A stretch of DNA of 64,000 nucleotides from Octopus sinensis (taxonomy: Eukaryota): contig NC_043005.1 of the NCBI RefSeq assembly GCF_006345805.1, forward strand, positions 36,270,001 to 36,334,000. Direction: 5' to 3'. Below the pieces are notes generated by a model. The model was not told the origin of the DNA. It worked only from the letters and a program-made list of their open reading frames with translations, and made no database searches. Position numbers and translations under genes: made by a program. Each line of letters begins with the position of its first letter. Position 1 is the stretch's first letter. Positions 3,170 to 27,511 of the stretch are shown here, piece by piece.

Positions 3170-3691
3170 AGGGACTAGAGAGAGGCAAGACGTAGTATGA
3201 ACACAAACCACAGAGTGGCAAAGTTGGAGACTAGCAAAATCCTCTGGAACTTCCCAATCCAAACAGATCAAGTGCTAGAGCATAACAGATTGGACCCAGT
3301 GGTGGTGGACAAGATGCACCACGTATGCTATATAGTTGAATTTTGCATGTCCCTTTGGCCCACGAATAATCAAAAAGGAAGGTGAAAAGATAGATAAATA
3401 CAACCCTCTTATGAACGAAATAGACTGGCTATGGAAAACGAAGGTGAAGATAGTGCCAATTATTGTTGGGTTCTTGGGAACAGTATCAGAAGGCATCAAG
3501 GGAAATATAAAGGAAATTGGAATAGTGTGCCCAGTGGAACTGTTACAAAAGGTTTGCCTCCTTGGCACAACTAGAATAATCTGTATCAGATAGCTGAAAA
3601 TAATGGATAGCATCGTGCCGTAGGCTGCAGATAGGAAGCCCGCTACGCATGTAAGACCCCAGGAGATCCAACAAAACCTGTGATAAAGAGA
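3170..3691 (+). mobile_element. Dong/R4-type RLE LINE, family F, 3' fragment
   Basis: ILWNFPIQTD..NRLD.VVVD, EKIDKY, VPIIVGFLG, LQKVCLLGT (RLE C-terminus); 3' end runs directly into (AAT)n. Confidence 0.85.
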
Positions 3692-3780
3692 AATAATAAT
3701 AATAATAATAATAATAATAATAATAATAATAATAATAATAATAATAATAATAATAATAATAATAATAATAATAATAATAA
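3692..3780 (+). repeat. (AAT)n microsatellite
   Basis: Pure AAT tandem repeat between two elements. Confidence 0.98.
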
Positions 3781-4336
3781 ATGCCCTGATGCAGTACCAG
3801 GCAGTGGCTCTCATGGCTTCTGATCTTAACTGATTGGAAGTGTTATCATGTACATTGTTTTGTCTTGGTTTAAAAGATGGGCTACAGCAAATATTTTGCT
3901 CAATACCACAGATTTGCTTGTCAGTTGTTTGACCTTAACCAGTTGAGCATGTCACTTAGTGGCTGACGATATGTGCATCTCTGATCACGAGCAGAAGTAG
4001 TGGGGGAGCATCAGAGCCATGTGTTGAGAGGGATTCTTTAGGGTTTGGATAATTCACCTCTGGAAACATGGGTGATTCGTTCAACATCCTTAAACAATCC
4101 TTATTCAAGGACCTTTTGAGCGGGATGGGTTACTCTACCAGAAGAAAATTCTAACTGGGCCCCACCTGCAAGGTCATGTGCTGTTTATCTTGATATGAGA
4201 TCACCATGTCGCGCTCATATGGTTGTGATGCATGTGCCTAGTGTACCCTTATCAGACGGGTAGTCATGATGGGTATACTGGGCTTCATATATTTTACCCC
4301 AGTGTCACTTTGATGGCATGCACTGCTCTCTCACTC
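3781..4336 (+). mobile_element. ~556-bp non-coding interspersed element embedded in (AAT)n, full-length copy 1
   Basis: Starts ATGCCCTGATGCAGTACCAGGCAG, ends CTGCTCTCTCACTC; flanked both sides by (AAT)n; three further copies in the window; no recognisable ORF. Confidence 0.85.
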
Positions 4337-4409
4337 AATAATAATAATAATAATAATAATAATAATAATAATAATAATAATAATAATAATAATAGTAGTA
4401 ATAATAATA

Positions 4410-4884
4410 GTCTTGGTATAAAAGATGGGCTACAGCAAATATTCTGCTCAATACCACAGATTTGCTTGTCAGTTGTTTGACCTTAACCAGTTGAGCATGT
4501 CCCTTAGTGGCTGACGATATGTGCATCTCTGATCACGAGCAGAAGTAGTGGGGGAGCATCATAGCCATGTGTTGAGAGGGATTCTTTGGGGTTTGAATAG
4601 TTCACCTCTGGAAACATGGGTGGTTCTTTCAACATCCTTAAACAACCCTTATTCAGGGACCGTTTGAGCAGGATGGGCTACTCAAAATGAAGAAAATTCT
4701 AACTGGGCCCCACCTGCAAGGTCATGTGCTGTTTATCTTGATATGAGATCACCATGTCGCGCACATATGGTTGTGATGCATGTGCCTGGTGTACCTTTAT
4801 CAGACGGGTAGTCATGATGGGTATATTGGGCTTCGTATATTTTACCCCAGTGTCACTTTGATGGCATGAACTGCTCTCTCACTC
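4410..4884 (+). mobile_element. 556-bp element copy 2 (5'-truncated)
   Basis: Very similar to 3862-4336 with the same 3' end; (AAT)n on both sides (4337-4409 and 4885-4941). Confidence 0.85.
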
Positions 4885-4941
4885 AATAATAATAATAATA
4901 ATAATAATAATAATAATAATAATAATAATAATAATAATAAT

Positions 4942-24033: not shown

Positions 24034-25170
24034 TGGATGTTAAAACTTGTCTCAAAACATGAAAACAAGAAAGCATCATACTCAGTAACAAAACAGGCAA
24101 AGGAATATCTAAGTAAATTCCGAATACAACAAATTTCGGAATTAGAGATAGACATACAAGAAACAGGTACAGAAAAAGCTAAGCGCATGAAAACCCGTGC
24201 TAAATCTGCGGCCTTAGATATTCTGAATGATAAATGGCAAGAAAAACCTCTCTATGGCAAATACCCAAAGAGAGCAAATAATGCAGATGTTGACAAGGCC
24301 CTGACTCATCAATGGCTAATGGCCTCTGGCTTAAAATCTGAAACAGAGGGGTTTATCATAGCAGCTCAAGATCAATGCCTACCAACAAGAAACTACCAGG
24401 CCAACATATTAAAGATCAGAAGCAGTCCAACGTGTCGTGTATGCAAGCAACAAAATGAAACCATTGACCATGTGGTCTCCAAGTGCAGTCTTCTAGCGCC
24501 TACAGAGTATCTCAACAGGCACGATAGAGCTGCCCAATATATTCACTGGGTAATCTGTAAAAACCTGGATTTGCCCCATGAAAAAAACTGGTGGGAACAC
24601 AAACCACCCCCAGTGCTTGAAAATGACCACATCTCACTCCTCTGGAACTTCACCATTCAAACTGACAGAAAGATAGATGCAAATAGGCCAGACATCATAT
24701 TGAAAGACTTCAAACAAAGAACATGCCTCCTCATTGATATGACTGTCCCAATCGATATAAACGTATCTGTCAAGACCTACCAAAAACTGAGCAAATATAA
24801 AGATCTTGAAATAGAAATCAGCAAAATGTGGAAGCTGAAGACTAAAACAATACCTGTTGTCATAGGTGCCCTGGGAATGATAGCAAAAGGGGCTGATAGC
24901 TACTTAACTCAGATACCAGGAAACCCAAAAATGGCAGAAATTCAAAAGATAGTGCTCATGGGAACTGCTCATATCCTACGCAAAATACTTTCTATGTAAT
25001 CTCAAGGTTTAAAACAAACATAATTTTCATTAGTACAACACCCCCACCCACCAAATATATGGCACACTAGGCATAACAACAACATGAACTTCCAACCCTG
25101 TTGTCTCCTGAGGTCTCTGGGTGAGACTAGGAGCCAACTTGTACAAATATAAAGCAAAAGTCAAACATAG
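24034..25170 (+). mobile_element. Dong/R4-type RLE LINE, family D, 5'-truncated
   Basis: Uninterrupted 320-aa frame plus 3' UTR; (AAT)n on both sides. Confidence 0.92.
24037..24999 (+). CDS. C-terminal part of RLE retrotransposon protein (CCHC + RLE)
   Basis: WQEKPLYG, AAQDQ, CRVC..HVVSKC, RHD, RPDIIL, IDM, QKLSKY, PVVIGALG; clearly paralogous to, but distinct from, 7147-8103. Confidence 0.9.
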   Translation: MLKLVSKHENKKASYSVTKQAKEYLSKFRIQQISELEIDIQETGTEKAKRMKTRAKSAALDILNDKWQEKPLYGKYPKRANNADVDKALTHQWLMASGLKSETEGFIIAAQDQCLPTRNYQANILKIRSSPTCRVCKQQNETIDHVVSKCSLLAPTEYLNRHDRAAQYIHWVICKNLDLPHEKNWWEHKPPPVLENDHISLLWNFTIQTDRKIDANRPDIILKDFKQRTCLLIDMTVPIDINVSVKTYQKLSKYKDLEIEISKMWKLKTKTIPVVIGALGMIAKGADSYLTQIPGNPKMAEIQKIVLMGTAHILRKILSM

Positions 25171-25210
25171 AATAATAATAATAATAATAATAATAATAAT
25201 AATAATAATA

Positions 25211-25570
25211 TGTGACAAAGAACTAGAAAAGATTGAAAAGTACAGACTACTAAAAGACAAAATTGAAAGAAAGTGGACTATAAGGAGAGTGTCTGTCATC
25301 CCAATAGTTGTAGTGGCACTCAAAGCACTGACGACCAAATTCGAGAAATATATCAGAGAAATTGGAACTGACATGAGAGCATAACAATCCTCAAAAACTG
25401 CTCCGCTGGGACAGCTACGATTTTGAGATTGGTACTTGGATACTGGATGTCTTCCACGATAATTAATAACCAATTATCGCGGAAAGAGGCCCTGTGAGAC
25501 CTTTGACAACAGGCTGCTGTCCACACCCCCAGAATCAATCAGAGCAAACAAGACCGAGCGTTCTGAGAAG
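25211..25570 (+). mobile_element. Dong/R4-type RLE LINE, family E, short 3' fragment
   Basis: KELEKIEKYRLLKDKIERKW..VIPIVV.AL, QKLLRWD/LGTATILR region; between AAT tracts. Confidence 0.75.
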
Positions 25571-25670
25571 TATGATGATAATAATAATAATAATAATAAT
25601 AATAATAATAATAATAATAATAATAATAATAGCAACAACAACAACAACAACAACAACAATAATAATAATA

Positions 25671-27511
25671 AAACATTCCATGAATAAATGGCAACCAATG
25701 TTAGAGCCTCCAGACAAAAGAGGGACTCATAAAAACCAAAGCCATCTCCATTAGAAGAGGAATATTCCATGAAGACACGCTCTCTCTTCTCCTTTTTCTG
25801 CTTAGCACTGACACCTTTATCTGACATGCTAAATAGAACTGGATGTGGATACAACTGTTACGGCAAAAAATATTAATTATCTCTTGTATATGGATAACCT
25901 AAAACTGTACGCTACAAATGATAAACAGCTGGAAACATTACAACAGACGGTACATGGAGTTACCAAAGAAATAAACAGGAAAATTTGGCTTAGAAATATG
26001 TGCCAAAGCAACCTTGGCAAAAGGAAAACTAGTTAAGAGTAACACCATCACACTAGATAAAACAAATGAAATAAGAGAATTAGACCAAAGCCAGACATAC
26101 AAATACTTAGGAATCAATGAACTAGATACAATACAATACACACAGATGAAAGAGAAGAAAGGAATACTATAGACGAGTTAGATTAATATTTAAAACAAAG
26201 CTCAATGCAAAAACAAAACAAGATAATAGGTATCAACACTCTAGCAGTCCCACTTATAAGTTACAGGTACAATATTCGTAACTTCACTGTAAAAGAACTA
26301 ATAAAAATGACAGGAAAACAAGAAAGATAATGACAGAATTTAGGATGCATCATCCAAAATATGGCATAGAAAAGTTATATAAACAACGTATTGATGATGG
26401 TAGATGCCTTATACAGCTAAAAAGACTACTCTACTATAAAATAACCATCATAGGACTGCAAAAATACCTACTTCGGAAGCAAGAACAATTAATATAAATA
26501 GCCACAAAACACAAGCGAAGCAAGAAAAACTGTTTTCAGTCTTTAAGGAAGCTACAAAATACAAAAAAGAAGTCATAGTACCTGACAATTATGGAGAAAA
26601 AGAAGAAACAACAAAAACTGTAAAATAGCTGAAATCCAAACTAAAACTGAAACAGCCACGTATCATGATAAAACGATGGCAAGAAAAGCCCCTTCATAGC
26701 AAATATTGGGCTACGCTAAACAGAAAAGGAATAGACAAAGCAAAATCCCAAGAATGGTTGAGAAGCTCAGGACTCAAAGCAGAGACTGAAAGATTTTTAA
26801 TTGCAGCATAAGATCAAAGTCTCCTCACCAGAAATCACCAAAAGCACATAATGAAAATAAATGAAACAAGTAACTGTGGAATATGTGATGATGGAGAAGA
26901 AATAATGAACCTTACTGTCTCTGGTTGTCCAGTCCTGGCTAAGAAGGAATATATACACAGACATGACAGAATTGGGACCTATATACACTGGAAGCTATGC
27001 CAACCCTATGAAATGACAACAGAAAAAAGATGGTATAGGCACGTCCCAGAAAAGGTCACAGAAAATGAGAAAGCAACCATACTCTGGGATATACCAATAT
27101 ACATAGATAGGAAAATCAAGGCTAATAGACTGGATATAGTTGTCAGAGATCACCAAGAAAAAGTGGCCTTCTAATTGATATATCAATGCCTACAGGTGAC
27201 AACATTTCTCAAAATACAAAGATCTGGAGACAGAGGTAAGTGGAGCCTAAAAGCAGAAACAATTCGTATAATAGGAGTCATATTAGGTATGTTAGGAAAA
27301 CATTCAGACAAACACATAAACAAAACACTAGGACTTACAAGAGTATATTGCATACAGAAAATAGCACTACTATACACCGCATACATCCTACATAAAACAC
27401 TTTCAATACAGTGAAAATAAGAACATCACAACAAGCTACAGTACATACCCAAGGTAAGCAGAGCTGCGCTTGGTAATGCAGTGAAAGCATACGATAAAAA
27501 TAAAACTACTG
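25671..27511 (+). mobile_element. Dong/R4-type RLE LINE, family B, second (older) copy
   Basis: Collinear with 8287-9863 and extends further 5' (RGIFHED.LS, YLLYMDNLKLYA); same 3' end AAATAAAACTACTG before (AAT)n. Confidence 0.9.

Follow-up and report, generated by a model that had tools for sequence, protein, structure and literature searches.

The 3′ untranslated regions (UTRs) of retrotransposons in a 64,000-nucleotide (nt) stretch of the Octopus sinensis genome (RefSeq assembly GCF_006345805.1, contig NC_043005.1, positions 36,270,001 to 36,334,000; the whole stretch is called the window below) carry a small hairpin near their 3′ ends. The elements are Dong/R4-like, and the evidence strongly supports this hairpin as a conserved, sense-strand, RNA-type structure. 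It is 33-37 nt long and has a conserved build: CC, 3 nt, a 6-base-pair (bp) inner stem around a 5-nt loop, 1 nt, and GG. The outer stem ends in the CC/GG pairs (formed in 27 of 29 aligned rows at each of the two positions), a 3-by-1 internal loop lies between the two stems, and the apical loop reads NGGNN. The 5′ side of the internal loop started with a pyrimidine and ended with A in 24 of 27 rows, with a single base on the 3′ side, and the inner stem opened with a purine-pyrimidine pair. The feature kept in the apical loop was G-G at positions 2-3, with pyrimidines often as the last two bases; a preliminary description of this DNA, made from its letters alone, had called the loop purine-rich, which is too simple.

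That description had proposed one hairpin architecture for six families, A to F, with one string for each. All six strings were found at their positions, and each follows an endonuclease C-terminus, with 46-59 nt between the end of its loop and an (AAT)n tail. The architecture holds in outline in all six families, exactly in A, C, and D and as variants in B, E, and F. Motif A (8202..8238, plus strand, as are all copies below unless noted) has CC at 8208-8209, the 3-nt loop at 8210-8212, an inner stem of 6 bp with one A-A mismatch (8213-8218/8224-8229), the apical loop GGGAA (8219-8223), and GG at 8231-8232. The bulge previously drawn in A is really this one mismatch, and a second A-like copy, A2 (20009..20045; UTR only, loop AGGAA), pairs at the same place. 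Motif C (23854..23890) has a perfect 6-bp stem, the loop GGGAT, and one broken CC:GG pair; motif D (25101..25137) has a perfect 6-bp stem and the loop TGGGT. Motif E (25494..25530) keeps five of six inner pairs and the loop AGGCT, and its outer stem is lost in the window copy. Variant F (3612..3649) also forms five of six inner pairs, around a 6-nt loop (3629-3634); it was aligned by eye against F2, a decayed minus-strand copy (33169..33206, by eye), and both read best with a 6-nt loop. A seventh family, G, has its motif on the minus strand at 34069..34105 (loop TGGAT), with an endonuclease C-terminus at 34203-34304 on the same strand. Pairing of the CC with a downstream GG, first noted for A, B, and D, proved to be general, but it was lost in the E copy and at one of the two pairs in C and F.

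Family B (9794..9831) is a variant with a 6-nt loop lacking GG. Its register had been set one position off owing to a T at 9800 that is private to the window copy; the hairpins of A and B are thus present, but in corrected registers. In contigs of four sequencing runs (three studies) covering 9560-9863, the family majority was C at 9800 (95-99.9% of summed depth) and G at 9818 (98-99.8%). These two bases restore CC/GG and leave five of six inner pairs around the 6-nt loop, so the stems were not lost in the consensus of B, the one family for which a consensus was checked; A, C, D, E, F, and the repeat X described below rest on one to four window copies. A minor variant at 9802 keeps a pyrimidine, and another at 9819 would complete the stem and was not counted because it falls at a CpG site. 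A decayed second copy, B2, is 81% identical to B over 1.7 kb, and its motif was placed by eye at 27442..27479.

The UTRs themselves were unalignable, as had been stated: among seven window UTRs compared by blastn with a word size of 7, the best match was 31 nt between A and G over the motif (E = 0.058) and the rest were no longer than 12 nt. The original loose description did not exceed chance for single elements. In 2000 dinucleotide shuffles per UTR, a rule requiring CC, a 3-4-nt spacer, 5-6 bp with one mismatch, a 5-6-nt loop, and the CC at 40-80 nt from the end was matched by 26% (A), 6% (B), 61% (C), 36% (D), 43% (E), and 29% (F) of the shuffled sequences, and the window B copy itself did not match it; such hairpins were therefore not rare in shuffled UTRs. 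Folding z-scores of the seven Dong UTRs ranged from -0.58 to +0.29, with none folding better than its shuffles. Because the loose rule is common in shuffles and folding is ordinary, the window alone is weak evidence, and both observations would suit chance hairpins or common ancestry without selection. Relatives from outside the window decide against that explanation.

Relatives were scanned with an alignment of 18 C-termini. Viral contigs gave 48 pattern matches and no confirmed relatives, and 14 loci lay in prokaryotic genome bins, where they apparently represent carried-over eukaryotic DNA. A further set came from metagenomes, where the best 80 of 447 confirmed loci were taken. Of 80 endonuclease ends inspected in all, 74 had at least 100 nt downstream and formed 25 sequence clusters (the two largest hold 41 of the 74 ends, and clusters L053 and L070 look like one family). 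The fixed build occurred in at least one copy of 23 of the 25 clusters when loops of 4-6 nt and a start inside the end of the open reading frame (ORF) were allowed; L016 matches only six of ten anchor bases. A strict rule taken from the window copies was matched by 6 of the 25 cluster representatives (0.014 expected), with no matches on the opposite strand or in coding DNA. Its loose form was matched by 8 (1.4 expected); two further matches fell on the opposite strand and one in coding DNA. The common architecture was therefore wider and more exact among relatives than first described.

Covariation, put forward in the preliminary description as the check to be made, was present in both stems across the relatives. 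When the motif was anchored by sequence only, with no pairing term and with an anchor written after part of those loci had been seen, unique placement was obtained in 15 of the 25 clusters; L042, which was placed wrongly, and L015, which has a 4-nt loop, were kept among them. In these 15 clusters 65 of 75 inner-stem cells paired (33.8 expected after arm swaps; 22-30 in slid registers), as did 40 of 60 outer-stem cells (24.2 expected), and none of 20,000 arm swaps reached the observed inner or outer pairing. An alignment of 29 rows (6 from the window and 23 from the loci, with B, F, and three loop-length variants left out) gave higher values, with 87.6% of 348 cells paired vs. 55%, a covariation of 0.877 vs. 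0.246, and double-sided changes at 11 of 12 pairs; these figures are inflated because the rows were located with a score that rewards pairing, and the sequence-only anchoring is the fairer measure. RNAalifold returned the same fold, with 10 of the same 12 pairs. The nine strongest of 666 column pairs by corrected covariation (27 rows) were all predicted stem pairs, no strong covariation was found outside the stems, and the consensus was one nested hairpin. The first base of the internal loop and the last base of the inner stem seemed linked (Fisher test, P = 0.047), but the link was rejected, as it ranked 72nd of 666 and follows the tree.

Protein identity among the 29 rows was 30-75% (median 45%). 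When free evolution from a paired ancestor was simulated on their protein tree, the observed 107 of 115 inner pairs were reached in 0 of 1500 simulations at each of four rates. The two outer pairs that were tested were reached in 159, 5, 0, and 0 of 1500; the outer-stem covariation is thus not significant at the slowest rate, and the faster rates are those that match the observed divergence. Covariation therefore lay far beyond both shuffles and tree simulation, and the stem columns, with a mean column identity of 0.35, are close to saturation. Chance or unselected ancestry is refuted for the family set and is left only for E, F, and X taken singly; overall, we give it almost no weight.

The conserved-RNA explanation also accounts for strand and position. 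A covariance model built from the 23 non-window rows ranked A (E = 1.2e-7), D (E = 4e-7), and G (E = 6.1e-5) first in the window; A2 (rank 4 of 9, E = 1.3) and C (rank 6 of 9, E = 2.4) were not significant and stood among chance matches. In 94 loci (344 kb) it gave 76 matches, the 23 training rows included, all on the element sense strand. Of these, 74 adjoined an endonuclease end, and the other two lay in UTRs preceded by an ORF that the start of the contig truncates. Among endonuclease ends with at least 100 nt downstream, 70 of 78 had a match. Three whole bins yielded at least 26, at least 1, and 0 matches, with 150 of 377 candidates scored in G001 and 150 of 397 in G002; the matches in G001 (10.4 Mb) were all copies of one Dong-type family, and the G002 match was a training row (L006). 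G001 (loci L001-L005, L008, L009, L012, and L095-L121) is a prokaryotic bin in which a eukaryote-type retrotransposon is present in at least 26 copies, apparently as host DNA that was carried over; the very short copies L105, L110, and L111 start just 3-15 nt upstream of the motif.

In the 28 families measured, the motif lay 33-66 nt before the tail, and its distance to the tail varied far less than its distance to the ORF end (standard deviation 8.5 nt vs. 51.6 nt). Stem cells held 34 G-U and 16 A-C combinations, an excess that favors sense-strand RNA. Covariation in both stems, restriction to the sense strand, the G-U excess, and a position tied to the 3′ tail together bear out the conserved RNA structure that had been proposed. 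The same data speak against a translation signal (stop read-through or termination) or a DNA hairpin. A stop codon does lie inside the internal loop in L006 (1315-1351) and L042 (2867-2903), so that the outer stem overlaps coding sequence there, and several motifs start less than 30 nt from the ORF end; but motifs lie anywhere from -1 to 203 nt from the ORF end, G-U exceeds A-C, and no antisense matches occur, which makes this alternative very improbable.

Against a conserved hairpin common to these elements stand the limits attached to the covariation figures above and several further points. The loop GG is not universal, since it is missing from the 6-nt loops of B and F, the former a very abundant family; loops of 4 nt occur in L015 and L021 and of 6 nt in L030. 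Two of the 25 clusters, L037 and L082, lack the full motif; their contigs end within 140 nt, and that of L082 stops inside the apparent first half of the motif. The held-out model missed B, E, F, and X and left A2 and C below significance, and 8 of the 78 endonuclease ends had no match. As to function, a signal read by the host would give the same conservation.

Geometry, covariation, strand, and position were observed directly; for template recognition we argue from R2 and UnaL2. By analogy with these systems, the conserved, covarying hairpin is probably a cis signal bound by the element's own reverse transcriptase (RT)-endonuclease to select and position the RNA for target-primed reverse transcription (TPRT) at AAT microsatellites. 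The protein would read the loop GG, the internal-loop A, and the CC/GG pairs, and the 6-bp inner stem would be a spacer whose sequence is free; the linker, which is A-rich in one clade and holds a second hairpin in the others, would feed the (UAA)n end to the active site, where it would be delivered to the nicked AAT target. Since every family has these fixed bases, the tag would separate Dong RNA from host RNA, not family from family.

UnaL2 and Dong belong to different clades and have different endonuclease types. In both, two stacked stems are split by a small internal loop below a GG-containing 5-nt loop, in a tail of about 60 nt that ends in short repeats and is common to non-coding partners (PMC1636434). 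The UnaL2 tail, a bulged stem with a GGAUA loop, is required for retrotransposition (PMC1636434). The two differ in detail: GG occupies loop positions 1-2 in UnaL2 and 2-3 in Dong; UnaL2 has a bulged C and a U-U in place of the 3-by-1 loop closed by CC/GG; and loops are highly variable across L2 families, whereas in Dong they are largely fixed. No GGAUA occurred in the census of Dong loops, and no Rfam match fell on a motif. R2 encodes the same endonuclease class and the closest solved proteins. It too has a small core close to its 3′ end; an A-rich single strand comes next, as it does in class I Dong elements (defined below), and stem changes that preserve the structure are tolerated (PMC12222951). 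R2 3′-UTR cores are required for TPRT (PMC10499050, PMC12222951). An analogy with the structured R2 3′ UTR, drawn in the preliminary description, is one of function only; in structure, R2 has two helices with a protein-wrapped linker, or a pseudoknot in birds, and Dong has one hairpin (PMC10499050, PMC12222951). The R2 core arrangement (P1-J1/2-P2 with base triples, or a pseudoknot) was absent from the Dong consensus of one nested hairpin. Moreover, R2Bm and R2Tg share little sequence similarity here, whereas the Dong geometry is fixed across 30-75% protein identity. In build, the modeled Dong element is closer to the UnaL2 tail than to the R2 core. The 3′ hairpin of monocot L1 and short interspersed elements (SINEs) likewise combines variable, compensated stems with fixed flanking and loop bases (PMC3747384); it differs in belonging to the L1 clade, in plants, with other fixed bases and poly(A) tails.

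A host factor that reads the hairpin and sets the 3′ end, stability, or nuclear traffic of the RNA would also explain why the fixed bases were kept while the proteins diverged, provided that the host reader is itself conserved, and why the hairpin keeps its place relative to the 3′ end. Internal loops of the 3-by-1 type can, in addition, act as nuclear-import signals (the C-loop; PMC9516175). The Dong loop was nevertheless rejected as a C-loop, since 21 of 29 rows have C/U or U/C, which breaks the pairing rule of PMC9516175 under a position mapping that we inferred. No Rfam family fell on any motif (141 matches at E ≤ 5 in 3000-35000, mostly simple repeats, none overlapping one), model matches were confined to Dong-type elements, and the corresponding region of R2 and L2 is ascribed to the element's own protein; we regard a host reader as unlikely. 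It is less likely still that the element protein binds the hairpin as a switch for DNA cleavage or particle assembly and not as a template selector. The bound R2 3′ UTR does also govern first- vs. second-strand nicking (PMC12503042, PMC12222951), and a tag common to all families cannot alone keep families apart; the narrow distance to the tail, on the other hand, fits positioning of the template end, and a variant lies equally far from the tail in repeat X, where no coding trace was found. Template selection by the element's own protein thus remains the reading that we prefer.

No description of a Dong/R4 3′ structure was found in a literature search, although one may stand in the original papers on Dong, R4, and Rex6, in Kojima and Fujiwara 2004, or in Repbase or Dfam, which lay outside that search. 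No 3′-UTR structure for Dong appears in the available parts of PMC13282606, PMC7650587, PMC4640811, PMC3812793, PMC3774820, and PMC9516175. The known RNA structure of the R4/Dong clade is a 5′ ribozyme like that of hepatitis delta virus (HDV) (PMC3774820).

Linkers between hairpin and tail fell into classes. Class I, a clade with a bootstrap of 99 that holds A, B, and D, had mostly A-rich linkers. Families outside it (class II) had a second hairpin frame, made up of CC, a stem of 3-6 bp, and WGA immediately upstream of the tail, in 14 of 16 cases (0.37 expected), and class I had it in 0 of 14. These counts are optimistic because the rule was written after the sequences had been viewed and because E and G, with too little protein left, were classed by resemblance. 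The frame lies at 23902..23921 in C (CC, 3-bp stem, TGA), and the second hairpin of F is at 3658..3683 (CC, 4-bp stem, TGA); in E it is probable at 25528..25568 (5-bp stem then AGA by eye; the rule scored 2 bp). Pairing of the loop GG with a downstream CC, as a universal pseudoknot, was ruled out in class I, which has no CC frame (0 of 14). In class II neither the loop GG nor the linker CC varies, so that covariation is blind to a GG:CC contact.

Repeat X is about 555 nt long and occurs in four same-strand copies beside (AAT)n tracts. The copies have a common right end, and three start within about 10 nt of one point. Copy 1 (3781..4336), a candidate non-autonomous passenger, is non-coding and lies between (AAT)n tracts; copy 2 (4410..4884) is shorter at its left end, copy 3 (5085..5580) is diverged with its inner stem partly broken, and copy 4 (20160..20636) lies inside the AAT tail of A2. 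The motif variant in X (4241..4278) has CC/GG, a TTA loop, a 6-bp stem with one bulged A, and the loop GGGTA, 60 nt before the tail. A one-bulge rule, relaxed after X had been seen, matched only copy 1, D, and G on both window strands and was reached in 5 of 20,000 shuffles. The 3′ 101 nt of X fold at z = -3.06, and a double change in copy 4 keeps a second hairpin paired. X showed no coding trace of a Dong protein (best E = 0.57) and no match among 121 loci of relatives; a crude descriptor found no HDV-like fold on either strand of two of the four copies. Tail sharing between long interspersed elements (LINEs) and SINEs allows a non-coding partner to be moved by a LINE protein (PMC3747384). 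X may be such a passenger, mobilized by a Dong protein, or else the long UTR of a family not seen here. A bolder proposal, possible but one against which we lean, is that all Dong-type elements use one portable tag, about 35 nt long, that takes two forms according to lineage (alone or with the second hairpin) and is readable by any Dong protein. Families would then cross-mobilize each other and passengers such as X, and the tag would suffice to write foreign RNA into AAT microsatellites.

The host elements were identified by domains and target site against the published description. ORFs A (7087-8103), B (8176-9828), and D (24034-24999) encode a C-terminal CCHC knuckle and a PD..D endonuclease of a retrotransposon without long terminal repeats, at 46-52% pairwise protein identity; in B the last knuckle Cys is changed to Arg. 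Families C, E, and F are decayed, with protein segments at 29-43% identity, and A2, B2, F2, and the minus-strand family G are additional copies. The RT Pfam domain was present in all of the best 120 longer relatives (RVT_1 in the six longer relatives searched against Pfam), and solved R2 proteins were the best structural-database match of the relatives' profile (E = 1e-52). Named relatives came from a coral, shrimps, a butterfly, a beetle, a psyllid, and a killifish, with one labeled bacterial bin, and none among the matches listed was named R4, Dong, or Rex6. R4/Dong elements encode RT and a restriction-like endonuclease, lack N-terminal zinc fingers, and target (TAA)n (PMC7998251, PMC3812793). 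Of 12 full-length relatives, none had an N-terminal CxxC zinc finger, a result for relatives only, as the window copies are 5′-truncated. A Trp-containing N-terminal block was conserved in 27 relatives. R4/Dong proteins also have a diverged N-terminal Myb/SANT-like domain (PMC7998251); no Myb match was found for the relatives in Pfam or the Protein Data Bank, and HHpred was needed to find the Myb/SANT-like domain in PMC7998251. The RT and restriction-like endonuclease, the missing N-terminal zinc finger, and nesting in (AAT)n thus fit R4/Dong as defined in PMC7998251, and Dong-R4 is a recently active class in Octopus vulgaris (PMC13282606).

The window is rich in microsatellites (123 tandem-repeat rows). 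Element A (7087..8270) is 5′-truncated, with the knuckle/PD..D ORF followed by the 3′ UTR and (AAT)n on both sides; element B (8287..9863) sits inside its AAT tail, and element D (24034..25170) inside that of C. (AAT)n occurs at the 3′ end of A, A2, B, B2, C, D, E, and F, and B, B2, D, and E also begin directly after (AAT)n, nested in the tails of other copies; the tails of G and F2 are short or decayed. Chains with each family in its predecessor's tail were observed at 6863-9925 (A then B) and 23921-27623 (C, D, E, B2). A 41-bp direct duplication lies at the 5′ junction of element A (7039-7125), and another sequence ending in (AAT)16 (38470-38641, plus strand) gave no motif match. Strings at 10004 (plus), 35180 (minus), 6821 (minus), and 35314 (plus), in a repeat that also adjoins AAT tracts, resemble a hammerhead ribozyme core, and the repeat resembles Penelope-type ends; Rfam listed no hammerhead in 3000-35000. 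A five-copy tandem array (51438-52350, 184-bp unit) belongs to an abundant short interspersed repeat that also occurs singly at 12487-12717, 18401-18620, 32502-32832, and 34325-34678.

How a LINE protein chooses its own RNA is known in detail for few clades, and the R2 signal cannot be read by sequence comparison. The Dong hairpin is a real, clade-wide RNA element, a new structure for a known type of function and no new kind of system. Its signal is compact, alignable, and strongly covarying, and it names the exact bases to mutate. The hairpin also offers a structure model with which Dong 3′ ends and their non-coding passengers could be sought in genomes with unalignable UTRs, and it is a candidate minimal tag for RNA-templated insertion at AAT repeats.

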